Source: Thermodesulfobacteriota bacterium
GTDB lineage: Bacteria > Desulfobacterota > Binatia > Bin18
DNA length: 64,000 nt
NCBI GenBank assembly: GCA_964291405.2
Contig: OZ219926.1
Coordinates: 1,333,825-1,397,824 of the forward strand
Direction of reading: 5' to 3'
Below the pieces are notes generated by a model. It was not told the origin of the DNA, ran no database searches, and saw nothing but the letters and a program-made list of their open reading frames with translations. Shown piece by piece: positions 9,186 to 52,611 of this stretch. Both the position numbers and the translations under genes were made by a program. Each line of letters opens with the position of its first letter. The first letter of the stretch is position 1.

Positions 9186-9366
9186 TCACATACGAAGAGA
9201 GGTCTTGCTGAGGCCTCGCCCAGCCCTCTTGGCTTTCCAGAGATGTTGGTCGAATGGCACCAGATGCACCCCTTGGCCTCGGCGTGTTGTCCAAGCACTC
9301 CTCCTGACGCGATCATCCGACGATCACTTTATTATGGGCTTTTAACAGACTCTCTGGAGGGGAAAA

Positions 9367-10020
9367 ATGAATAGATATCTTTTGGCCCCAGTCGCTTTCG
9401 CTATGAGTACGGTTCCAGCCTTTGCGCACCACCCGCTCGCCGGTGCGCCGATGGAAACCCTCACCGACGGAATCCTATCCGGCGTTGGACACCCGCTCTT
9501 GGGCTTTGATCATCTCTTCTTCGTCATCGCCGTTGGCGTGGCGGCGCTGTACACCGGTCGCGCGAAACTGGCAACGGCAGCCTATGTTGGCGCGATGCTG
9601 ACTGGGTGCCTGCTGATGAGTTTTGGCCTTGGTCTTCCTGTCAAGGAATTTGTGATCGGCATGTCGCTGCTGGTTGTCGGCTCTCTCATTTTGTCCGGTC
9701 GTGCCCTGGGTCTTACGCCGGCTGTCGGACTTTTCGCGGTTTTCGGCCTGTTCCACGGCTCAGCCTTTGGCGACACGATCGCGGCCCAGGAAGCAGGGGC
9801 GAGTGCTGCTGTTCTGGTCGGCTATTTGGTCGGGCTTGGCCTGGTGCAATACGGCTTGGCGCTCTTGGCCGGATTTGTTGTTCACAATCTGCTGAAAGCA
9901 ACAGCGGCGCAACATATTCATGCCCGCCTGGCGGGCGCTGTTGTTGCTGGTGTCGGCATGTTTTGCACGCTTGAGAATATCGAAGGCCTCGTCTTCAATA
10001 TGTTGGGCCTGGCTGTCTAG
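9367..10020 (+). CDS. HupE/UreJ-family membrane protein (putative Ni/Co transporter)
   Basis: 217 aa. It has a signal-like N-terminus, the motif GVGHPLLGFDHLFFVIAVG (HPxxGxDH) and multiple hydrophobic helices. Confidence 0.75.
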   Translation: MNRYLLAPVAFAMSTVPAFAHHPLAGAPMETLTDGILSGVGHPLLGFDHLFFVIAVGVAALYTGRAKLATAAYVGAMLTGCLLMSFGLGLPVKEFVIGMSLLVVGSLILSGRALGLTPAVGLFAVFGLFHGSAFGDTIAAQEAGASAAVLVGYLVGLGLVQYGLALLAGFVVHNLLKATAAQHIHARLAGAVVAGVGMFCTLENIEGLVFNMLGLAV

Positions 10021-10272
10021 AGAAGCCAAGCCATCCGGCGCTGAAGTCCTGCATCCCGTGAAGCTGTTTGCGAAAGAGATTCTGCCAGGTCTGCCTTAAG
10101 CTGGTTCAATAAGGGAAGAACACCTCATGGCAGAAACACAAGAAATCATGTCGGGCCTCCTGTCGTGGTACAGGCTACGGAAACGGTCCCTTTGTGTCAT
10201 TTGGCCCGTTGTGCACGGCTTCCCGTTGGGACCGACGTGATCGGTCCCCTACTCTTTCATTCACCACGCGAT

Positions 10273-11415
10273 TTATCTCAGCCCCCGGAAGCAGGTGCGC
10301 ACCTCGCGTAGATACGACTCGGGTTGTTCGAACGCGGCAAAATGGCCGCCCTTGTCGAGTTCGTTGAAGTACACCACGTTCGCGAAGCGCTTCTCGGCCA
10401 AGCGTCTGGAGGTGTGAAAGATTTCCTTGGGGAAGATGGAGCATCCGACGGGGACGTTGACCGGATCCTGCCGGGCGAATGCCTCGTTGAAGCTCTCCCA
10501 ATACAGTCGTGCAGAAGATGTGGCGGTCGCCGGCAACCAATACAGCATCACGTTGTCGAGCAGCTCATCCCGCGTAACAACGTTCTCCGGATGGCCATCG
10601 CAGTCCATCCACGACCAGAACTTCTCGATAATCCAGGCCGCTTGTCCGGCGGGGGAATCGGTCAGACCATACCCGACCGTTTGCGGCCGGGTGCTTTGCT
10701 GCTTGGAATAGCCGGAGTCCCAGTCGTTGTAATACTTCATTTTTTCGAGCGCCGATTTTTCCTGTTCCGTCAAATCGTCCATCGTCGGATCGGGCATCGC
10801 CAGCACGAGGTTCATGTGAATGCCGAGGCAATTGTCTGGATCCTGCACGCCGATGTACATCGTCACCACCGCGCCCCAATCGCCGCCCTGGGCAGCGTAG
10901 CGCGTATAGCCGAGCCGCTGCATCAACTGCGACCAGGCGCGTGCAATGCGTTGCACCTTCCATCCGGTGCGTGACGGCTTATCGGAGAATCCGTAGCCCG
11001 GCAGCGACGGGGCAACCACGTGAAATGCGTCGGCAGCATCGCCCCCGAACGCGGTCGGATTTGTCAGCGGCTCGATGACTTTATGGAACTCGACGATCGA
11101 TCCCGGCCAGCCGTGCGAAATCACCAGCGGCATCGCATCAGGATGCGGCGAGCGAGCGTGAATGAAATGAATCCCCAGTCCGTCGATCGTGGTCCGGAAC
11201 TGCGGAAAGCGATTGAGCTGCTCCTCGCGCGCCCGCCAGTCGTATTGTTCGAGCCAGTATTGGCACAGCTCCTGCGTGTAACTGAGCGGGATACCCTGGG
11301 TCCAGTCGTCCACACATTCCGGCTCGGGCCAACGGGTGTTGCGCAGCCGCTGGTTGAGGTCGTCGAGCTGCGCGTCAGTTGCCGCAATGCGAAAAGGTTC
11401 GATATGATCACTCAT
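10273..11415 (-). CDS. epoxide hydrolase (microsomal-type N-terminal domain plus alpha/beta hydrolase)
   Basis: 380 aa. The N-terminus is FRIAATDAQLDDLNQRLRNTRWPE, followed by the HGWPGS oxyanion-hole motif and an alpha/beta-hydrolase body. Confidence 0.85.
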   Translation of the reverse strand: MSDHIEPFRIAATDAQLDDLNQRLRNTRWPEPECVDDWTQGIPLSYTQELCQYWLEQYDWRAREEQLNRFPQFRTTIDGLGIHFIHARSPHPDAMPLVISHGWPGSIVEFHKVIEPLTNPTAFGGDAADAFHVVAPSLPGYGFSDKPSRTGWKVQRIARAWSQLMQRLGYTRYAAQGGDWGAVVTMYIGVQDPDNCLGIHMNLVLAMPDPTMDDLTEQEKSALEKMKYYNDWDSGYSKQQSTRPQTVGYGLTDSPAGQAAWIIEKFWSWMDCDGHPENVVTRDELLDNVMLYWLPATATSSARLYWESFNEAFARQDPVNVPVGCSIFPKEIFHTSRRLAEKRFANVVYFNELDKGGHFAAFEQPESYLREVRTCFRGLR

Positions 11416-11723
11416 GAATTGCCATCCTTCCGATCATGGGTTTACAGCCAGCAGTCATCATAGGATGCCTTTACGTACCACAGACTCAGATCAGAATCAT
11501 CGGTTTCCACCCGCAACCATTAGCGACCAGTGACAACAAGGCTTGACAAAATCAATGAAACGAGAAGATATGGCACCAGCTTTTTTTGAGATACCGGGGC
11601 ATTTTCCTATCGGGATAGACTGCCGGTGAGGTGGCCGCACACTCACTCGTTTCCCATTAGGGCACTGGCTTCTCCTTCATTGGCATTTTCCTGGAAGACG
11701 CTCGGAAAGGGGAGGGAAATCAT

Positions 11724-12248
11724 ATGAGTGACACGATCGACGATCTGGTGGCGCGTCTGACACGCCTGGAAGACCTCGAAGCCATTCGGCATACGTGGCG
11801 GGACTATTGCATGCGACTGGATTCTGCGGATTGGAGTGCGCTCGGTGATGTGTTCACCGAGGACGCCGTCCTCGAGATGGATGGACTGGACCATCTGATC
11901 GAGGGACTAGATGGTCAGTATTGCGGCCGACAGACGATCATCAACGACTTCTATCGGCAGACCGGGTCTGTGCTTCCGCACGGCGCCAAGCCACTGTTCG
12001 TCACCGGTCATCTCAGCACAAACATGCAGATCGAGCTCCAGGGCGACGAGGCCACCACGCTCGCGTACTTTTTCGAGATCGTCGCGAACGATCGGGTGTT
12101 GATCGGGACGTATCAACATCGACTCCGTCGCGAAGCGGATCGCTGGCGGTTTCGCTTCTTGCGCATCGCGATTCGGTATCGGGCTCGGCTGGAAGCCACG
12201 GACGTAGGCGGCCAATCGCTGAACGACATCCTCGCACGTCCGGTCTAG
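11724..12248 (+). CDS. SnoaL-like / NTF2-fold protein
   Basis: 174 aa. LEDLEAIRHTWRDYCMRLDSADWSALGDVFTEDAV is typical of the SnoaL_4-type family. Confidence 0.65.
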   Translation: MSDTIDDLVARLTRLEDLEAIRHTWRDYCMRLDSADWSALGDVFTEDAVLEMDGLDHLIEGLDGQYCGRQTIINDFYRQTGSVLPHGAKPLFVTGHLSTNMQIELQGDEATTLAYFFEIVANDRVLIGTYQHRLRREADRWRFRFLRIAIRYRARLEATDVGGQSLNDILARPV

Positions 12249-12332
12249 CTTATCGCTGGTCGTCCTCCTGAACTCTTGCGTCCGCTGGACAGGGTGTGAA
12301 AGAACCACGGAGAGAAAAACAAGGAGGAAGAG

Positions 12333-13406
12333 ATGGCAGACCCACAGTTTGACCAGGCAAGAGCCGACGCCTTTTCCCAAAAGATGCTCGGCATCTTAAA
12401 TGACGCGAGTGTGGCCCAGATGATAGTCATCGGCCACCAAGTCGGCCTGTTTGACACACTGGCCGGCTTAGCCCCCTCGACGAGTGAGCAGATTGCGGCG
12501 GCGAGTGACTTAAACGAACGCTACGTACGCGAGTGGCTCGGAGCCATGGTGACCGGCCGGATTGTAGACTATGACCCTGCCGGGAAAACCTACCGCCTCC
12601 CGCCTGAGCATGCCGCCGCCATCACTCGAGCGGCCGGCCCGAAGAACCTCGCGGCGCTGCTGCAAATGGTGCCAATGGTGGCGAGAGTCCAGCAGGGCAT
12701 CGTGGACAGTTTTCGCAATGGCGGCGGCGTGCCGTATTCAGCGTTCAGCGACTTCCATCAGCTGATGGCCGAGGTGAGTGGAGCCGTCCACGATGTGTCT
12801 CTCGTGAACACGACCCTGCCCCTCGTCTCCCAGCTGGTCGAGCGTTTACGCACGGGCATTGACGTCCTCGACGTCGGGTGTGGAAGTGGCCATGCGGTCA
12901 ATCTCATGGCGCAAGCGTTTCCGCAGAGCCGCTTTACAGGCTATGACTTCTCGGAAGAAGGCGTCGCTGCGGGACGGGCGGAGGCGCAGGAGTGGGGGCT
13001 CACCAATACCCAGCTGGCCGTCAAGGATGCGGCCGAGCTCGACGAGGTCAGCCGCTACGACTTTATCACCGCCTTTGATTCTATCCACGACCAGGCGCAT
13101 CCCCGCGCCGTGCTCAAGGGCATTGCCCAGGCCTTGCGGCCCGACGGCACGTTTTTGATGGTGGATGTGAACAGCTCGAGCAATTTGGAGGAGAACCTCG
13201 ACCATATCCTGGGGCCGATGCTGTATAGCATCTCATGTATGCATTGAATGTCGGTCTCATTGGCCCTCCGGGGTGAGGGTCTCGGCGCGATGTGGGGCAG
13301 ACACAAGGCTCAGGAGCTGTTGAGCGAAGCCGGCTTTACTCAGGTCACCATCAAGAATGTGGAACAGGATATGATGAATAACTACTACATCTGCACGAAG
13401 GGCTAG
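12333..13406 (+). CDS. class I SAM-dependent methyltransferase with an in-frame UGA (candidate selenoprotein, C-M-H-U motif)
   Basis: ORF 12333..13247 ends in TGA (13245-13247). The same frame stays open for 52 more codons to TAG at 13404-13406. It encodes [52 protein letters not shown]. As I recall, this is the normal C-terminus of this family, where the TGA position is Cys (SC.HCM..SLA). The SAM motif is [10 protein letters not shown] hairpin lies 14 nt downstream of the UGA. Confidence 0.7.
13262..13281 (+). promoter_or_regulatory. candidate bacterial SECIS stem-loop for UGA 13245-13247
   Basis: Stem GGCCCTC/GAGGGTC (7 bp including one G-T pair) with loop CGGGGT. Confidence 0.55.
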
Positions 13407-13465
13407 CGAAGACGGCGGCATGTGGAGGGGTTAGAGGTTGTAGGGACAAAGATAGGCCGTTGTCC

Positions 13466-14644
13466 TTATGTGGGAGATATCTGAGTATCCTCCAGGCTTT
13501 CCATTTCCTCCTCCCATGTCATACGCTTCCTCAAGGAGTTCAAGACCGGTTCGGAAGGCAGGGCTTCAGGGAAAAGGACCCCTCGCTGCGTAATGGTCCC
13601 ATCGGCTAAGAGCATGATGGCAGCGACCGCTGGTCCGGTGATAATCAGGTTTCGATCGGCTGAAGCCCCACGAAACGTACAGCGGGTACGGACACCGTGC
13701 TTCTCTCCCTCGACATAGACAACGACCCCAAATCCAGTCCCCTTGGCAGCATCGAGCGCTGTAATCCGCTGAAATAGTGGGCTCTCGACAAAGTACCGCG
13801 AGGTCAAAAACTCCACCATAAAATCAAAGGGGACAATAGGACTCTCGCCAACTTGCAAGGGTTCTGTGGTGCATAAACGCGCGTCTCGCAGAAAGGTCAG
13901 GAGTGAGTTAAACTCCTCCACCCAATACCCACCCTTACACACGACTGCCTGCGGCTCCTTGAGCAGGGCACGAGAGGCGTGGAGCATCAAGGGCTCCCCA
14001 TGTCCTACTACCCGTACGGTCTGCCGACCGATCGGCGGGGGAAAATCTAAGCTTTCCTCCTCTGTCCAGGCCTGGATCTCTTGGATCTGGCCAGCGCGAC
14101 AGACAGGAACAGAGGCGCTCGCCATACCCATCCGATGGATCCACAGGGCGCGGGCAAAAACGCTGATGCTGGCAATCCAATTGAGACCAATCCGATCTAC
14201 GCGCTCCAGCCTATCTGCCCCAGCTCGGGCCCAGAGGTTCGTCAGTCCTGGGGAACCTCCGATTCCCAGGACGAGCGTACAGCCACGCCGCTCAGCTTCT
14301 CCACTATACTGAGCCGCCAGATCACTGACGTTGAGATCATCGTTGATATCGACATAGTGGACTCCCGCCTCTACCGCAGCGCGCATACCGGGCAGACCCG
14401 TATCGGAATACGGGCCGGCAAAGTTGCCGATGAGATCCGTGTTGCGCGCGGCCGCCAAGAGGGCCGTATGATCACGAATATCCAGACCGAGACCTGCGCT
14501 CGCCCCAACCTCTTGAGCAACCCGCTTGGCCCGCTCCCCGTCCAAATCTGAGACGACAAGTTCAGTAATACTGTTTTCCTGGGCCAAAAGCTTGGCAATC
14601 CGAGAGCCTTGGGTGCCCGCGCCTCCGAGTAGCAGCACACGCAT
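13466..14644 (-). CDS. saccharopine dehydrogenase-like NAD(P)-binding protein
   Basis: 392 aa. The N-terminal Rossmann motif is MRVLLLGGAGTQGSRIAKLL, and the architecture is typical of saccharopine dehydrogenase NADP-binding family proteins. Confidence 0.7.
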   Translation of the reverse strand: MRVLLLGGAGTQGSRIAKLLAQENSITELVVSDLDGERAKRVAQEVGASAGLGLDIRDHTALLAAARNTDLIGNFAGPYSDTGLPGMRAAVEAGVHYVDINDDLNVSDLAAQYSGEAERRGCTLVLGIGGSPGLTNLWARAGADRLERVDRIGLNWIASISVFARALWIHRMGMASASVPVCRAGQIQEIQAWTEEESLDFPPPIGRQTVRVVGHGEPLMLHASRALLKEPQAVVCKGGYWVEEFNSLLTFLRDARLCTTEPLQVGESPIVPFDFMVEFLTSRYFVESPLFQRITALDAAKGTGFGVVVYVEGEKHGVRTRCTFRGASADRNLIITGPAVAAIMLLADGTITQRGVLFPEALPSEPVLNSLRKRMTWEEEMESLEDTQISPT

Positions 14645-14676
14645 CAGTCCCCTCCCCTTGTGGCGAGCGCTCGTAT

Positions 14677-15318
14677 TTAGGCAGTCGCCCGCAGGCGGTC
14701 CGGCACTTCGAGCTCAGCGATCACTTCATCGCTCGTGAGCACCCGGCAGAAGGCCAGACGCAGAATTTCGAGGCTTGCCTCATGGGCCTGTTGCGAATAG
14801 GTGGCGTTGGCGTCGCTGACAAAAAACACCTTATAGTCCAGCATCGCAGCGTCCCGTGCGGTGGACTCACAACAGATATTGGTAGCAACCCCGGTGATAA
14901 TCAGACTTTCCCTTTTGAGACCTCGCAGGAGGCCCTCAAGGTTAGACGAGCCAGGAATGAGCGCGCTCCAGCGACACTTTTGGACCTGATGATCTTCAGG
15001 CTGGACGTCAAGCTCGGCGTAGAGCTCGACCCCCGTCGTCCCTTCGATCATGGGCGGCAGAAAATCCCACATCAGGCCGGCATCGCTGCCGTCTTTCCGT
15101 TCAACATGCCGGATCCAAATGACAGGGACTCCCGCCTGCCGGCACGTGTGAGCCAGCCGGTTGATGGTTGGGACGATCTCACGAGCGGCCGGGACCTCGC
15201 TGTGCGCTCCAGGTAGCAGGACGTCGTTCTCCATATCGATAACGAGAAGCGCGACGTTTGCCGGATCAATGTGCCAATCGGTTTTCCTGTGCGGATCAAA
15301 CGCTGTCGTGTGTGCCAT
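14677..15318 (-). CDS. isochorismatase-family cysteine hydrolase
   Basis: 213 aa. VALLVIDMENDV and ITGVATNICCESTARDA contain the catalytic Cys context. Confidence 0.8.
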   Translation of the reverse strand: MAHTTAFDPHRKTDWHIDPANVALLVIDMENDVLLPGAHSEVPAAREIVPTINRLAHTCRQAGVPVIWIRHVERKDGSDAGLMWDFLPPMIEGTTGVELYAELDVQPEDHQVQKCRWSALIPGSSNLEGLLRGLKRESLIITGVATNICCESTARDAAMLDYKVFFVSDANATYSQQAHEASLEILRLAFCRVLTSDEVIAELEVPDRLRATA

Positions 15319-15546
15319 GGGACATCCTCCTTTTCGTCAGCGAATTGTCAGATAATTCGTGCAGGGAGTATAGGCTCTTTGGCTTCTGCAAGTCAAAGAG
15401 ACATTGAAAAGCCAACCATACAGTCGAGCTAAGAAGATGACGAAGCCCTGCCCAAGGTCATGGGGACGAGGTTGCTCTGCCTATCCCCGAAGCCGCTCCG
15501 GTAATCAGGGCTACTTTATCTTCGAGTCGCATGGGTCCACTCTCCC

Positions 15547-17058
15547 CTATTTGGACAGCAAACTGGCCGCCACCCCATTCACTTGCACGGCGGGGGTTCC
15601 TGCGGCGAGCACAGCGGCGGCCTCTTTCTCGACCAGCGTGCCATTGAAAAAATCCGGGTTGGCGTCGGCCCAGAAATGGACCGGATTCGCCAGTACGAAG
15701 TCACGAAAATTGTCTGCATCCATCAAGCCATCTTCAACCAGTTCGTAGGCTTCGGGTAAGACCCCAGCCATGTCCGTCACGTCGAAATGGCCAATGTCCG
15801 AACCGAATAAGGCGTTCAACTGCGAGCCGAGCGGAAGATTCTTCCGATTAAAAGCCACGGCGTTCATTTTATCATCCGCCTCGCAGCCGAAATAAAAATT
15901 CTTGGCAAACAGCTCGTGAAAGTCCTGCTTCTTATCGATCTGGCACGCTGCGTAATCATCCAGATTCTCGATGCCACCCGTCTCGGGACCATACGGCTGC
16001 GTGACCGTGTCCAGGGGCGATTCACTCTCTGTTAACGCGTCGACGATTTCTTGACTTCCGTACGATTCAGCCAACTGCCGCAGCAAATCCACATCGAGAT
16101 TGTCTGGCCTGACTTCCTCCAAGGCGTCCACATTACGCTTCTCCCAGTGCTCGATCAGATCAACGTACAGCTGACACGCCCAGCCGACGCCGCCTTCCAG
16201 AAAACCAAACTTCAGGGTCGGAAACCGACGAGTCACACCGCCCAAAAAGAGCGCTTTACACACCGCTTCACCGGCAGCGGCAAAATGGCCAATGTGGTTG
16301 TAGCAAAAGTTCGAGGGCGAGACGCGCAAGCCGTAGCCTTTGCTACCGGAATGGAAGGTCGGCGAGAAGCCTAACTCGACACACTTCGCCCACACGGGGT
16401 CATAATCATGTTCGCTGTCGAGTCCGAGGACATCGTACCAGGCGGCAACGCCTGCGGCTGTGGGATGTTCTTCGGCAATAGCGGGTATCTGACGTCGCAT
16501 CATGCTGCCCAGCATGACGACCTTTAAGCCTAGTTGATGTTTCACATGTTCGAGTTCTGTAATGGCTTCTTCCGGCGTGTGCATCGGAATTACAGCCACC
16601 GGCGTCAGGCGATCCGAGAAGTTGCGAAAATAATCGGCACTAAATGTATTGAAGGCCCGGCAGGTCACCCGTCGCGTCTCGTCATCGGCAATCGTGGGGA
16701 GTGACAGACCTATAGTCGGATACATGACCGAAAAATCGAAACCGAGTTCATCCATGCGTTCATACAGCAACTGCGGCATAAACGCCGTAGCACGGTCGCG
16801 CGTATTCCTGGTTGGGAATCCCCAGAACCCCTGCTGCCCAATCCGTCGCTTACGCCGCTCAGCCACCGACATCGAGAGTTGCCGGTCGACCAGCGCGGGG
16901 CGTAATGAGAACCCCTCCGCGGCCATGTCCCCACCAATCTTTCGCAGCCGTTCCTCGACCAACGGCCCAAACTCCAGCCAGTGTCCGTCGGCGTCAATGA
17001 TCGGGTGGTTCAGCTGCTTCCGCAGTACTGTGTTCCTGGTAGTTCCGTTACGACTCAT
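15547..17058 (-). CDS. amidohydrolase-2 family metal-dependent hydrolase (ACMSD-like TIM barrel), long form
   Basis: 503 aa. It has the N-terminal metal-ligand motif IIDADGHWLE plus an HSG and a late D residue pattern. Confidence 0.75.
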   Translation of the reverse strand: MSRNGTTRNTVLRKQLNHPIIDADGHWLEFGPLVEERLRKIGGDMAAEGFSLRPALVDRQLSMSVAERRKRRIGQQGFWGFPTRNTRDRATAFMPQLLYERMDELGFDFSVMYPTIGLSLPTIADDETRRVTCRAFNTFSADYFRNFSDRLTPVAVIPMHTPEEAITELEHVKHQLGLKVVMLGSMMRRQIPAIAEEHPTAAGVAAWYDVLGLDSEHDYDPVWAKCVELGFSPTFHSGSKGYGLRVSPSNFCYNHIGHFAAAGEAVCKALFLGGVTRRFPTLKFGFLEGGVGWACQLYVDLIEHWEKRNVDALEEVRPDNLDVDLLRQLAESYGSQEIVDALTESESPLDTVTQPYGPETGGIENLDDYAACQIDKKQDFHELFAKNFYFGCEADDKMNAVAFNRKNLPLGSQLNALFGSDIGHFDVTDMAGVLPEAYELVEDGLMDADNFRDFVLANPVHFWADANPDFFNGTLVEKEAAAVLAAGTPAVQVNGVAASLLSK

Positions 17059-18231: not shown

Positions 18232-19925
18232 TTAGACTCGTTTACGCTGATATTTTCGACCTAACGCCTCCTCATCGCGCAGATATTTGGCCATCCGTTC
18301 ATGGCTGAATCCATACGGTCCGCTACCGAATAAACCGACTTCTTCAATCGCCAGCCGCTCTAATTCAGCATTACTAGATAAATCGCCTAAGCCTTGCTCA
18401 GTCGGCAGCTCGGCAGCCCGCCAAGCGTCAAATCCGCCCTGCAATACTGCGACGCGGGTATAGCCCATGGCTTTTAAGGTGGGGACGGATAAGGGCGAGA
18501 GATTCCCCTTGCGGCACATCAGCACCACCAGGGTCGTTTTGTCCGGTACTTCATGTTCAATCTGGAGGTCGAGCTTGCCCCGCGAGAGCCAGCGTGCGCC
18601 CGGCACATGAGCAGTGGCGAAATCGCCCAGACTCCGCACATCGAGCAGTGCAGGCTGCTCACCAGCATCAGCTGAGTCTGCAAGGCTTGCGGCGTGAGGA
18701 GTTCGGCCTGCGCACGAGCTTCAGCCAAGCCGGGGATCGGCAGAGCCTGGGGCTCTACCCCGGCCGGCAGTCCCTGCAGCAGCCGCGCCATCCATACGGG
18801 CTGGCCAAAATCAATCTCTTGGGGGTCGCCAGTCTCAAGCTCAAAACCGGCGGCTTTCCAGGCGGTCGTGCCGCCGTCCAGGACACTCACGTTTGGATAG
18901 CCAGCTCCCTTGAGTACAGACGCGGCGATAATCGCCCGGGCGCGGCCGGCACACATGGTGATAATCGGTGCGTTCTTCACGCCGATCAAACTCTCGACCA
19001 GGAGGGCAATCTGAGTCGCGGGACAAAAATGGGCGCCGGGAATATGGCCGGCCTGATACTCGTCGAGCAAACGCACATCGAGCAGGTAGAGCAACTCACC
19101 CTTTTCCTGCCGAGCGTGCACGTCCTGAGGGGTGATACTGGAAACGTTGTCTTCTGTGGCAAGGTGCTCGGCAAACTGTTTGCACGTTGAGATACCAGTC
19201 TCAGAAAGTCGGGGCACGGGGACGCCGTCGCCTTTCTCAAGTTCCCCGGTGTAGCCGGCAATGCGCCAGGCCCCGGTGCCACCCTTCAGCGCGTAGACGT
19301 CGGTAAAACCCATCCGCCGTAAAATATGAGCTCCCAGCAAGCTGCGTGTGCGGCCGGCACAGTTGGTGACAATCGTCCGGCCTTTGTCTGGTACAACCTC
19401 GGGCGCGATCAGGGCTAACTGCCCGCCTGGAGCGCAATACGCGCCTGGCAAATGCGCAGCCTTGAATTCCGGCTCAGTGCGAGTATCAAAGATATACAGC
19501 TGTTCGCCTTGCTTCAGGCGCGCATGGAGTTCTTCGGCCATCATCTCGGGGATGTCCTCCTCGACCTGGAGACGCTCGCCATAGACTTTGCCCCGTAAAC
19601 TCCAGCCATGCATTGTCTCATAGCCAGCCGCTGTCCAGGCGGTGAGACCGCTGTCCAGGACCGACACATTGGTATAGCCCAGGGTTTCCAGGCTGAGGGC
19701 CGCCCGAGTCGAACGTTGGCCGGTATCGCAGTACAGAACTGTAGGGATATCGGTCTTGGGGACTAACACCGAAATATACTTTTCTAATGATCCGCGCGGG
19801 ATGCAGTTGGTGCCAGGAATCTGGCCCAGGGAAAATTCTCCCCAGTCCCGGACATCAATGACCGCATACAGCACCTGGCTGTCTAGAAGCGCTTTGAGAT
19901 CTTGGGCACTCATACTGCCTGCCAT
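18232..19925 (-). CDS. four-domain rhodanese-like sulfurtransferase, interrupted by an apparent 1-nt frameshift near 18655-18680 (possible pseudogene or sequencing error)
   Basis: ORFs 18519..19982 and 18232..18639 overlap in different frames. There are four rhodanese repeats with active-site loops YCDTGQRS, NCAGRTRS, MCAGRARA and MCRKGNLS. The total span of 1694 nt is one short of a multiple of three. An AAGGAGGAA RBS precedes the ATG at 19925. Confidence 0.75.
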
Positions 19926-20063
19926 GAGAGTTCCTCCTTGTGACGCGTACGGAAAAGTCCGCAGGTGCTTGACCGCGCCCATATGACGTTGGACAATCGA
20001 AGCCTAGGCTCGAGAGATGGTCAATACCCATAAGATGAGCTGACTGCTGCAAGGGAGGGAGAT

Positions 20064-41454: not shown

Positions 41455-41536
41455 ACTGATAACGCCTTTTCCTGAGATGGGACCTTTTATTATCGCGGAA
41501 GACACGCAATTACCATATCTGTTCAAAGGAGCAAAG

Positions 41537-42697
41537 ATGCACGACAACGACCAAGCCATGCGCGAGTTTGCCAAGACCTTAGCGCTGCCAGAATTTGAAG
41601 AAGCCGCTTTCACGAAACCACCACCGCTGCGAGAGGCGCACGTGGCGATCGTGACCAGCGCTGCGCTCCACCGAATCGGCAGCCCCAAGTGGAAGGTTGA
41701 GGATTTCCACTTTGAGACCTTGCCGAATGACGCCCGCGATCTGAAGCTCGGCCACCTGAGCCCGAACTTTGATCGGGCTGGCTTTGCCGCTGACATGAAC
41801 GTCGTCTATCCGGTCGACCGCCTGCAGGAACTCTCCGATCAGGGGGTGATCGGCAGCGTCGCTAATTACCACTACGCCTTCGCCGGCAACCAACCCGAAG
41901 GGCTATCCGCGCTGCGTTTGGATACTGGTCCGGCCTGCGCTCACAAGATGCGTGAGGATGGAGTGGATGTTGTCCTGCTCACTCCGGTTTGACCGCTGTG
42001 TCCGCGTACCGTGTGTACGCTGGCCCACGTCTTCGAGGCGGCTGGTCTGTCAACGGTCGTGATCTCACCGATGCGTGATGTTGCAGAACGCATGCGTCCA
42101 CCACGCGTACTGTATGCAGAATTTCCATTAGGGCTGCCTCTCGGCAAGCCCCGCGACGCGGCCTATCAGCACCGGGTGCTCGAAGCGGCCTTTGCCCTGC
42201 TGGAACGGCCGAGTGGACCGGTTCTCGTAGACTTCCCGGAGACGATCCAAAGCAGGGGTGGGGAGCCCTTAGAGTGTCCGCTTCCGCCTCGTTACGATCC
42301 GAACCTGCACCCAGCCATTGACGAAGCACAAGCGTTACGCGCTGCTTACGACCGCGCTGTAGCGAAAACTGGGCGGACCAGTGTCGGCCGGGTGATCAAT
42401 GCGGATCAGATTCCTGCCGCACTCGAGAAGTTCGTACGTATCGCCGAAGGGGAAGCCTGGGATCAGGTTGGGCTCGAAGGGACGACTATGCAGGTCGTGC
42501 ACGATATCCGGGCCTACTACGAAGAGTTGGCCTGCGAACTGGTAGTCGACGAGCCCATTCCGGCGTGGAGCGCTGAGCGTTGGTTCTACGATAAAACCGA
42601 GGCCGGTAAGGTGTTGCTGACGGCACGCCGTACGCTGAAGGAGAGTGGGGCGAACCGTCCGATCTGGTTTTTCATGGCCCCGGGCTCACGCCAGTAA
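41537..42697 (+). CDS. GrdB/PrdB-family (glycine/sarcosine/betaine/D-proline reductase selenoprotein B-like) protein with an in-frame UGA
   Basis: ORFs 41357..41992 and 42011..42697 are in the same frame, 654 nt apart. The only stop between them is TGA at 41990-41992. The joined sequence reads VDVVLLTPV-U-PLCPRTVCTLAHVFEAAGLSTVVIS...YAEFPLGLPLGKPRD. The N-terminal blocks VAIVTSAALH and DMNVVYPVDRLQEL fit the GRDB family. AAGGAG precedes the ATG at 41537. Confidence 0.75.
42000..42024 (+). promoter_or_regulatory. candidate bacterial SECIS stem-loop for UGA 41990-41992
   Basis: A perfect stem GCGTAC/GTACGC (42004-42009 / 42015-42020) closes the loop CGTGT. It is extendable to 42000-42024 with one mismatch. 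Confidence 0.55.
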
Positions 42698-51439: not shown

Positions 51440-51579
51440 GTAGCCCTTCGACTTCAGGCGCGTTGCGCCTGCCGCTCAGGACTAACGGTCTGCCGTTCGT
51501 GCTGAGCGTAGCGGAGCGAAGTCGAAGCAGGGATGCCGGAGCGCGTCCGACATGACGAGCACGTAACGGCAGGGCTACA
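51440..51579. repeat. nested palindromic (REP/MITE-like) element
   Basis: The outer arms are TGTAGCCC / GGGCTACA (51440-51447 / 51572-51579). Next come CTTCGACTTC / GAAGTCGAAG, then GCTCAG / CTGAGC, with a central hairpin AACGG-TCTG-CCGTT. Confidence 0.55.
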
Positions 51580-51703
51580 GCCTATAGTAAAACGCTCTAA
51601 GCGAGTAGGGTTACAACTGCCCTGCTCATACCCGCGACATAGGCCGCCCTGCTTTCGGCACTCAGTACCAAGCCGGTCGATACACAGCTCAGAACAAACG
51701 CCA

Positions 51704-52255
51704 CATCCCGCGCAGCATGACCGGGAAGCCTCCCTCCCGATCGAGAACTACGAAGCGCTGAAACGGGAGGGGTTCTATGAGCTGACCATCCCCACGAACT
51801 TTGGAGGTGGGGGCGCGGGTTTGCTGGACTGGGTGCTGGCCGTCGAGGAGCTGGCCCAAGGGTGTCCGAGTACGGCCCTCAGCTTCACCATGCATGCCGC
51901 CGGGGTGCGGATTCTCATCGACACGCCCACGACTCCGCCGGCCGCCAAACAGCGCATCGCCCAGCTGGTTGCCAAGGAACACAAGCTGTTTGCCTCCGCT
52001 TTTACGGAACCAGGCTCTTCTAGTCTCCTGATCGGCCTGCCCTTTGTCCCGAGCGTCCAAGCCCGGCGAGTCGACGGTGGGTACATGTTGCAAGGCCGCA
52101 AGGCGTTTACCTCGATGGGGGAAGCCAGTGATTATCTGATGCTCATGGTCCATCCGCAGAAATCATCCAATCCCCTGGAGATGCTGATGCTCCTGGGGCC
52201 GTATCCTGCGCCCGGCCTGCGGGTGGAGCATTTAATGCAGCCATTGACGCTTTGA
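51704..52255 (+). pseudogene. acyl-CoA dehydrogenase fragment (N-terminal and middle domains only)
   Basis: The translation HDREASLPIENYEALKREGFYELTIPTNFGGGGAG...GYMLQGRKAFTS stops before the C-terminal helical domain. The first roughly 40 family residues are also missing. Confidence 0.55.
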
Positions 52256-52611
52256 TACATGCCCCAGAGAAAGTATCGGATTGCTTCGCTGAAGATGTCC
52301 TCTGGATTAACTATGTGCCGCAGCATCTGCCTTATGGTGGTGAGTACAGGGGACTTGATGAACTGGCTAAGCTTTTCGCTCAATATATGGCAGCGCTCGA
52401 AATTGGAAAGCTTGAGTTCGATGAATATTTTGTCACTGCAGACAGTGTTTTAATTGTGACGGGGAACGAATGCGAGAGTCGGGTGAAATCAACCGGAAAG
52501 CATTACACTATGCCGTTTGTTTGGGTTGTCCGTTTTAATGAACATGGAAAAATCAACTATGTACGCGAATATAATGACACGTACCCGATGGCAGAAGCAT
52601 TCAAAGCCTAA
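52252..52611 (+). CDS. SnoaL/NTF2-like protein, possibly 5'-truncated
   Basis: 119 aa from a TTG start. The same frame continues upstream as AFNAAIDAL without a start codon and abuts the ACAD fragment. Confidence 0.55.
   Translation: MIHAPEKVSDCFAEDVLWINYVPQHLPYGGEYRGLDELAKLFAQYMAALEIGKLEFDEYFVTADSVLIVTGNECESRVKSTGKHYTMPFVWVVRFNEHGKINYVREYNDTYPMAEAFKA

Follow-up and report, generated by a model that had tools for sequence, protein, structure and literature searches.

More than 100 bacterial selenoprotein families are known. Selenocysteine (Sec, U) is costly to insert and is found nearly always at catalytic, redox or ligand positions. Among methyltransferases, the catalogued selenoproteins comprise arsenite methyltransferase and its fusions, methylated-DNA-protein-cysteine methyltransferase, the methyltransferase/UXPK-star protein and MduS. 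The Sec-containing arsenite methyltransferase ArsM, a class I S-adenosylmethionine (SAM) methyltransferase whose substrate-binding Cys after strand β5 is exchanged for Sec, provides a precedent for the fold (PMC13188914). MduS, a 'methyltransferase domain-containing selenoprotein' (Haft & Tolstoy 2025, mSystems), is listed in the same source with domain PF13649, a CxxU motif, two Sec residues and the accession WP_332845911.1. Here we describe a gene at positions 12333–13406 of a stretch of 64,000 nucleotides (the window) on contig OZ219926.1 of a Candidatus Binatia genome, which most likely encodes a Sec-containing relative of the Mycobacterium tuberculosis protein Rv2258c. Binatia are uncultured soil and sediment bacteria.

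Rv2258c (PDB 5F8C/5F8E/5F8F) has the same two-domain architecture and length as the product of this gene and shows ~60% sequence identity to it. Residues 11–356 of the read-through product align to positions 24–369 of the 5f8c chain with E = 5e-122. In a large protein collection, the closest full-length homologue is just 72% identical and carries Cys where the window has UGA (hereafter, a Cys form); its structural model has Rv2258c as the top match (Foldseek E ~1e-41). The lid motif S-x-M-H-C-M-[TS]-V-S-L-A...G-L-G-x-x-W-G is common to Rv2258c and the Binatia protein, but Rv2258c has Cys at the UGA column and, at position –3, Leu (T-S-L-M-H-C-M) instead of Cys302. The sole other solved structure that combines the winged helix, the methyltransferase fold and the lid is that of TnmJ from the tiancimycin pathway (PDB 8G5S; E = 5e-48, 32% identity), the closest relative belonging to a characterized pathway, and a search of the PDB with a lid profile matched Rv2258c and TnmJ alone. 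TnmJ differs in having Tyr-Ser where His-Cys stands in the Rv2258c subfamily, and it was reported to be a SAM-requiring, non-methylating oxygenase that performs deformylation and epoxidation (bioRxiv 10.1101/2024.05.03.592356). Thus, the fold is no guarantee of methyl transfer. The structural matches following Rv2258c and TnmJ are natural-product small-molecule methyltransferases with the same dimerization-domain architecture; the metal-dependent α-keto-acid C-methyltransferases SgvM and MppJ likewise possess the same dimerization domain and the class I fold (Foldseek E ~1e-14).

The gene and its parts were delimited by reading the sequence, by translation and by domain searches, which gave the following features:

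12321–12327, + strand: Shine-Dalgarno sequence AAGGAGG, separated by 5 nt from the ATG at 12333 (sequence reading)
12333–13406, + strand: whole predicted selenoprotein gene, 357 codons including the UGA(Sec) codon 305, plus TAG (translation; end-to-end alignment with Rv2258c; equal length and frame in 11 full-length genes of the UGA type)
12405–12629, + strand: winged-helix domain HTH_65 (PF21320, Rv2258c-like), residues 25–99 (Pfam E = 7.6e-35)
12822–13340, + strand: class I SAM-dependent methyltransferase fold, residues ~164–336, spanning the UGA (Pfam Methyltransf_23, E = 2e-20)
13086–13091, + strand: codons of H252 and D253, after strand β4, a candidate catalytic or metal-binding pair (invariant columns in a 72-sequence alignment)
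13236–13247, + strand: motif C302-M303-H304-U305, CxxU (residue census)
13245–13247, + strand: in-frame UGA, predicted Sec residue 305 (TGA in 12/12 Sec-form loci; TGC or TGT in 155/155 Cys-form loci)
13248–13403, + strand: C-terminal tail of 52 codons, residues 306–357, which completes the lid helix, helix αE and strands β6–β7 (dN/dS; identity to the Rv2258c C-terminus)

The open reading frame (ORF) opened by the ATG at 12333 comprises 304 codons and ends with L-Y-S-I-S-C-M-H, followed by the TGA at 13245–13247. Beyond this codon, the frame stays open for 52 codons until the TAG at 13404–13406. A preliminary description of the window, made from its letters alone, had given the same positions for the ORF, the TGA, the open frame and the TAG, and all of them were right upon re-reading of the sequence. 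The TGA is the only one in frame between ATG and TAG, and the same is true for all Sec forms. By itself, an open frame of 52 codons is not rare at 57% G+C; therefore, the content of the tail, and not its length, carries weight.

For the Pfam search, we used the read-through product with Cys put at the TGA. HTH_65 matched over profile positions 1–75 of 75 with 119 bits (cut-off, 24.1), and the families Methyltransf_31, 23, 25, 12 and 11 all scored over their cut-offs, PF13649 with E = 4.3e-17. A GxGxG-type SAM motif, V-L-D-V-G-C-G-S-G, occupies residues 178–186. Among 59 distant representatives, H252 is present in 54 and D253 in 51. In the AlphaFold2 model of the closest Cys form (mean pLDDT, the predicted local distance difference test score, 76), the strand order is of the Rossmann type, and residues 302 and 305 share one helix (294–311) directly after strand β5 (268–279). 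The preliminary assignment of the protein to the SAM-dependent methyltransferases is borne out at the level of the fold by HTH_65 and the class I models, with methyl transfer itself as a possible activity.

We then compared the residue at the TGA column among the homologues. It is Cys in 155/155 homologues of at least 54% identity, as the preliminary description had anticipated. At the codon level, which was read from genome and metagenome loci with a locatable motif, the 155 Cys-form loci have TGC (136) or TGT (19). They were drawn from Chloroflexota, Actinomycetota, Cyanobacteria, Acidobacteriota, archaea and others, and in these data TGA was found at the column only in the Candidatus Binatia clade. 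The flanking residues are equally strict, with H304, C305 and M306 each invariant in 155/155 Cys forms. The preliminary description had furthermore stated that full-length family members continue past a C-x-H-C-M motif in the manner of the tail. This proved correct for Rv2258c (M-H-C-M-T-V-S-L-A-L), whose C-terminus is identical to the tail at 29 of 51 residues (57%). Its notion of a CxxC-like pair held for the second Cys (305) and failed for the first, since Cys302 is present in only 52 of the 155 Cys forms (34%; Thr in 83) as opposed to 10/10 Sec forms. Among distant representatives (33–52% identity), the Cys at the column is kept in about three quarters, and some carry A, S, G or R. Because these proteins and TnmJ have other residues there, the Cys is, judged by sequence, a hallmark of the Rv2258c subfamily and not of the whole fold. 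A metagenome scan retrieved Cys forms alone, all of at most 64% identity. One candidate from a search with the tail as probe (P0281) turned out to be a contig-end fragment that carries TGC and does not represent a Sec lineage.

The TGA form was traced in a set of 12 independent assemblies, namely the window and the loci L001, L002, L161–L168 and L174, of which 11, including the window, hold a full-length gene and L174 a partial one. All 12 Binatia assemblies keep the TGA at a body identity of 80–97%. The 11 full-length genes are each 1074 nt long, with TGA at codon 305, the same TAG and no further stop or frameshift; the partial L174 gene has the same TGA, tail and TAG and reads through as well. 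In addition, ~40 protein clusters of 80–97% identity, several of them on contigs of 4–5.6 Mb, are each called at exactly 304 aa. The search for further TGA-containing orthologues proposed in the preliminary description was therefore productive, though all 12 loci and ~40 clusters fall into one clade.

These observations bear on the possibility that a Cys codon turned into TGA in a decaying gene or through a sequencing or assembly artefact. One base suffices to convert TGC or TGT into TGA, and TGC is the codon present in the closest Cys forms. However, the TGA recurs in 12 assemblies and ~40 clusters that come from different samples, and the identity spread of 80–97% among the assemblies rules out a single contaminated source. 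The genes have acquired no additional stops or indels at a dS of 0.5–0.9, and both body and tail are under strong selection. Decay or error has, in our estimation, a negligible chance of being the correct explanation.

The selection on the tail was quantified with the Nei-Gojobori method. Between Sec forms, dN/dS was 0.04–0.10 for the tail and 0.10–0.18 for the body, at dS values of 0.3–1.6. The downstream frame, for which the preliminary description had suggested a conservation check, is thus under purifying selection. Because dN/dS remains this low despite a synonymous divergence of up to 1.6, the tail is, to judge from its substitution pattern, translated and constrained as a protein.

Purifying selection on the tail would be expected equally if the gene were split, i.e., if UGA served as a stop, translation reinitiated at the adjacent AUG (TGA-ATG, 13245–13250) and the 304-aa and 52-aa pieces reassembled without the conserved Cys. 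An ATG indeed lies directly 3′ of the stop, and in gene calls the tail appears as a 52-aa ORF of its own. This ATG is, however, ancestral, as it encodes the Met306 found in 155/155 Cys forms, and it is thus no evidence of an evolved restart; neither does a Shine-Dalgarno sequence precede the ATG at 13248. According to the structural model, the break would fall into the middle of helix 294–311. Moreover, a split gene would have to do without a residue that all 155 orthologues retain. We regard such a split as highly improbable, and it is taken up again below together with the evidence from the RNA and from the rest of the window.

If the UGA is decoded as Sec, a selenocysteine insertion sequence (SECIS) is expected downstream of it. 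The published model of the bacterial SECIS (bSECIS) comprises an apical loop of 3–9 nt on an upper stem of 4–16 bp, a G at loop position 1 or 2 (typically N1-G-[G|U]-N-N2-N, with N1 and N2 able to pair), a UGA-to-loop spacing of 16–37 nt and a minimum free energy (MFE) of –7.5 kcal/mol or lower (PMC13188914, Fig. 2A). Two nested features were assigned:

13248–13293, + strand: putative bacterial SECIS with a variable lower stem and a conserved upper hairpin (MFE structure, –18.6 kcal/mol)
13262–13281, + strand: SECIS upper stem of 7 bp (GGCCCUC/GAGGGUC) with the 6-nt loop CGGGGU at 13269–13274 (sequence; bSECIS constraints)

The hairpin begins 14 nt past the TGA, its arms are GGCCCTC (13262–13268) and GAGGGTC (13275–13281), and the spacing between UGA and loop is 21 nt. 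It had already been noticed in the preliminary description, which recommended a bacterial SECIS search. The sequence confirmed the hairpin, and it agrees with the bSECIS model in all four respects: loop C-G-G/U-G-G-U with a C:G pair at N1:N2, 7 bp, 21 nt and –18.6 kcal/mol. The two-tier fold and the architecture of the upper hairpin are kept in 12/12 Sec forms, and pairing in the upper stem is 100% across 6 distinct sequences. Variation of the upper hairpin among the Sec forms is confined to loop position 3 (G or U) and one G·U/G-C alternation in the stem.

The hairpin has also left traces in the encoded protein. Residue 313, whose codon CGK is the first of the loop, is Arg in 10/10 Sec forms and in 1/155 Cys forms, which otherwise have Gly, Asp or Asn. 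Two further codons are fixed in 11 Sec-form loci, GGT for Gly314 (12% in Cys forms) and TTG for Leu310 (11% in Cys forms). The rare codons and the otherwise rare Arg313 indicate that the hairpin is an element that has shaped the coding sequence.

Whether the source genome decodes UGA as Sec at all was assessed by scanning the window for TGA read-through candidates, which revealed two further genes:

8085–9185, + strand: second selenoprotein gene, AhpD-related, with 240 codons, TGA at 8805–8807 and 125 codons (NCBIfam NF041238)
~41477–42697, + strand: candidate for a third selenoprotein, distantly homologous to the GrdB/PrdB family, with TGA at 41990–41992 (Pfam GRDB E = 6.5e-10; start codon uncertain)

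The read-through product of the first matches NF041238 (AhpD_rel_CFYUT, 'alkylhydroperoxidase-related (seleno)protein') over 357/357 positions with 445 bits (cut-off, 175), and its TGA at 8805 falls on the U of N-Q-C-F-Y-U-T-T-G-H. A hairpin, CUGCUCC-GGG-GGAGCAG, lies at 8826–8842, 25 nt past the UGA. Nearly all homologues of this protein stop at the same codon in the databases, and NCBI applies the name of NF041238 to a protein of Candidatus Binatia as well. A truncated copy of the NF041238 type resides on a contig of 4,312,128 bp, and a Sec-form methyltransferase is likewise found on a 4,312,128-bp contig. The GrdB/PrdB-like protein scored 116 bits against TIGR04483 (PrdB), under the cut-off of 300. 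Its TGA is located at the U of L-L-T-P-V-U-P-L-C (UxxC), and the hairpin GCGUAC-CGUGU-GUACGC follows at 42004–42020, 17 nt past the UGA. The GrdB/PrdB family is unusual in a lineage that is probably an aerobic soil inhabitant.

At all three TGA sites, the hairpin loops begin with C-G-[G/U]-G and are spaced 17–25 nt from the UGA; the methyltransferase element CUC-CGGGGU-GAG resembles CUC-CGGGG-GAG of the AhpD-related gene. A genome-wide reassignment of TGA was ruled out, as the codon is the ordinary stop of 19 of the 63 ORFs in the window. Because of the NF041238 gene, the GrdB/PrdB-like UxxC gene, the similar loops and the otherwise normal use of TGA as a stop, the source genome very probably decodes Sec. 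When other Binatia loci were scanned for TGA read-through genes, the methyltransferase itself was the sole convincing one.

Reinitiation behind a genuine stop leaves the SECIS-type hairpin, the fixed Arg313, the rare codons and the co-occurring Sec-type TGA genes with their similar loops unexplained. A different possibility is that the UGA is recoded to a residue other than Sec, either to Cys, which in some bacteria is reportedly inserted by means of a SelB-like factor and a tRNA(Cys) resembling SelC, or to Trp or Cys by near-cognate read-through. Sequence alone does not distinguish Sec from another residue directed by a SECIS, and Sec-like tRNAs charged with Cys have reportedly been observed by Mukai and coworkers in 2016. 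A UGA that restores a mere Cys would, however, offer no evident gain over TGC, and simple leakiness of the stop would not keep an active-site residue invariant. Furthermore, the same genome contains a family that NCBI curates as (seleno)protein, and Cys302 is fixed in precisely the Sec forms, as would suit a Se-S partner. We consider recoding to a residue other than Sec highly improbable.

Several results weigh against the assignment of Sec to codon 305. All Sec forms belong to one clade, and their shared traits are partly due to common descent; an independent Sec lineage did not emerge, as the 150 best representatives of clusters formed at 50% identity include no protein that terminates at ...M-H. 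Covariation analysis of the hairpin yielded no compensatory double substitution among the 6 distinct sequences and a score equal to that of shuffles. The folding energy was unexceptional compared with shuffled sequences (z = 0.04 for 66 nt and –0.64 for 51 nt), and 16–21% of the Cys-form homologues fold equally stably over the same codons. The suppression of synonymous changes in codons 306–317 was marginal (0.198 vs. 0.313, permutation p = 0.058). Rfam returned no SECIS or other relevant family, neither for the whole window at gathering thresholds nor for positions 13150–13420 at permissive E-values. A tblastn search with E. coli SelA, SelB and SelD gave no match in the window and ~190 kb of related Binatia loci, which is uninformative at <5% of the genome, and ARAGORN detected no tRNA within the window. 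The argument for the hairpin accordingly draws on geometry and conservation and leaves folding energy aside.

Taken together, the Cys column, the conserved tail, the TGA-containing orthologues and the fit to the bSECIS model support the interpretation of the preliminary description, a methyltransferase selenoprotein. We conclude that the locus is in all likelihood one gene for a selenoprotein of 357 residues, in which UGA 305 specifies Sec in place of a Cys that is invariant among the orthologues.

The protein was compared with the selenoproteins named at the outset. It does not qualify as ArsM: NF008823 scored 34.4 bits against a cut-off of 263, NF041536 30.9 against 575 and NF041537 27.0 against 510, and only the generic SAM region matched (NF047649 was the fourth model compared). 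The Sec motif of ArsM is UxxG instead of the C-x-x-U-M-S-V found here, ArsM has no winged-helix domain, and the top 50 structural matches do not include it. A positional equivalence of the cysteines of ArsM and AS3MT to the Sec305 site is tentative, the regional-profile alignment with ArsM being non-significant (E = 0.12). With MduS, the protein has in common a methyltransferase domain of the PF13649 type and the CxxU motif (C302-M-H-U305). MduS is listed with two Sec residues, whereas the gene described here has one in-frame TGA; this sets the two apart by description only, and they may belong to one family. NCBIfam contains no model for the 87 residues flanking the Sec or for the N-terminal 172 residues. 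Neither the 2022 and 2026 selenoprotein reviews, the Global Ocean Sampling study and deep-Sep nor the main text of BSepDB mentions the family; MduS, compared by description, is the listed entry that comes near. The gene thus apparently represents a further, uncatalogued Cys-to-Sec family with an ordinary bacterial SECIS, MduS being set apart by its description only.

For the synthesis of the protein, the hairpin at 13262–13281 would act as a bacterial SECIS that recruits SelB with Sec-tRNA(Sec), so that the UGA at 13245–13247 would be decoded as Sec and translation would run on to the TAG at 13404. The product would consist of an N-terminal winged-helix dimerization domain and a class I SAM-binding fold of the Rv2258c type, with Sec305 beside the invariant His304 on the lid helix after strand β5. 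In the class I fold, the lid region after β5 lies over the methyl group of SAM and the pocket for the acceptor. Sec305 is likely to play an active-site role of some kind. Any specific chemistry is doubtful when taken singly, be it that of a nucleophile, a redox center or a soft ligand, acting with Cys302 or with His304/His252. The Cys302 fixed in the Sec forms is compatible, as a pattern of residues, with a partner of Sec305 in a selenenylsulfide (Se-S).

An analogy to SgvM leads to a more far-reaching proposal. SgvM binds its catalytic Zn via H244 and H296 (PMC10502145). These two residues are 52 positions apart, as are H252 and H304 here, a likeness by spacing only; SgvM was not retrieved by regional profile searches, and there is no sequence-level alignment. 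The sources consulted report no metal for the Rv2258c family. By this analogy, proteins of the Rv2258c type might not be plain small-molecule methyltransferases. His252, together with Asp253, and His304 could form a metal or substrate site resembling the Zn site of SgvM, the adjacent Cys305 or Sec305 with Cys302 could serve as ligand, nucleophile or redox center, and the Sec form could perform selenium-dependent chemistry. We deem this proposal unlikely as a whole. The position of the gene inside a Zur-type zinc cluster in one Sec-form subclade (see below) would accord with a role of metal. If the proposal were true, the Sec chemistry would be directed at metals, metalloids or chalcogens, or it would depend on oxygen, as is the case for TnmJ, and the family concerned would be one to which the M. 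tuberculosis protein Rv2258c belongs.

Because Sec is expensive and nearly always confined to catalytic, redox or ligand sites, its predicted presence flags residue 305 as functionally critical. Where it replaces the invariant Cys in the lid motif H-C-M, Sec would mark this residue as functionally essential in a widespread, structurally solved family that includes Rv2258c, and it would provide a concrete target for mutagenesis and structural work in the Rv2258c family. Selenoproteins with a methyltransferase fold would then extend past the arsenite methyltransferases. With at least three Sec-type genes in 64 kb, Binatia probably have a sizeable selenoproteome. For annotation, it follows that the ~40 clusters of 304 aa and the orphan ORFs of 38 or 52 aa downstream of them should be merged, as the protein collection holds no full-length Sec form and every Sec-form entry stops early. 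Across entries P0001–P0042 and P0275–P0279, the tail is annotated as an orphan 'hypothetical protein' of 38 or 52 aa, and the cluster of the orphan tail ORF P0275 by itself comprises 21 members from 49 contigs.

The genomic neighborhoods of the Sec-form loci have no conserved operon partner. In the window and in L161, the gene is accompanied by genes for an epoxide hydrolase, a SnoaL-like protein, a saccharopine-dehydrogenase-like protein, an isochorismatase and an amidohydrolase. In the subclade of 84–86% identity (L163, L164 and L165), the gene (10001–11074) is situated within a Zur-type zinc/metal homeostasis cluster at positions 2800–15800. This cluster encodes ZnuA, an ABC-3 permease, a MerC-ABC ATPase fusion, Zip, a CDF cation efflux protein, SCO1/SenC, CobW (COG0523) and a Fur-family regulator, and it also holds genes for the ribosomal proteins L24, L33 and L28 (L28 and L33 as paralogues). 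In L163, a CzcCBA-like RND efflux system follows immediately downstream of the gene. The zinc-cluster context is absent around the window's subclade, and the other subclades differ again.

A scan of promoters and terminators gave no signal beyond shuffle expectation. Some other genes of the window are worth recording. An ORF resembling acyl-CoA dehydrogenases (51533–52255, + strand) ends with a TGA, and an in-frame ORF of 64 codons (52259–52453) begins one codon on (M-Q-P-L-T-L-*-Y-M-P-Q-R-K-Y); the site shows no Cys-type motif and may reflect a disrupted gene or two genes. On the – strand, 5 kb downstream of the methyltransferase gene, a 487-aa protein with three rhodanese domains is encoded at 18519–19982. 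Selenoproteins are known among the rhodanese families, but an in-frame TGA did not appear in this gene. A membrane protein of the HupE/UreJ family (Ni/Co transporter type) is encoded at 9367–10020 (+ strand), between the AhpD-related gene and the epoxide hydrolase gene. Finally, two tandem, adjoining genes at 3193–4821 and 4914–6542 (+ strand) encode paralogous 542-aa flavin monooxygenases resembling flavin-containing monooxygenases (FMO), of the Baeyer-Villiger/FMO type.

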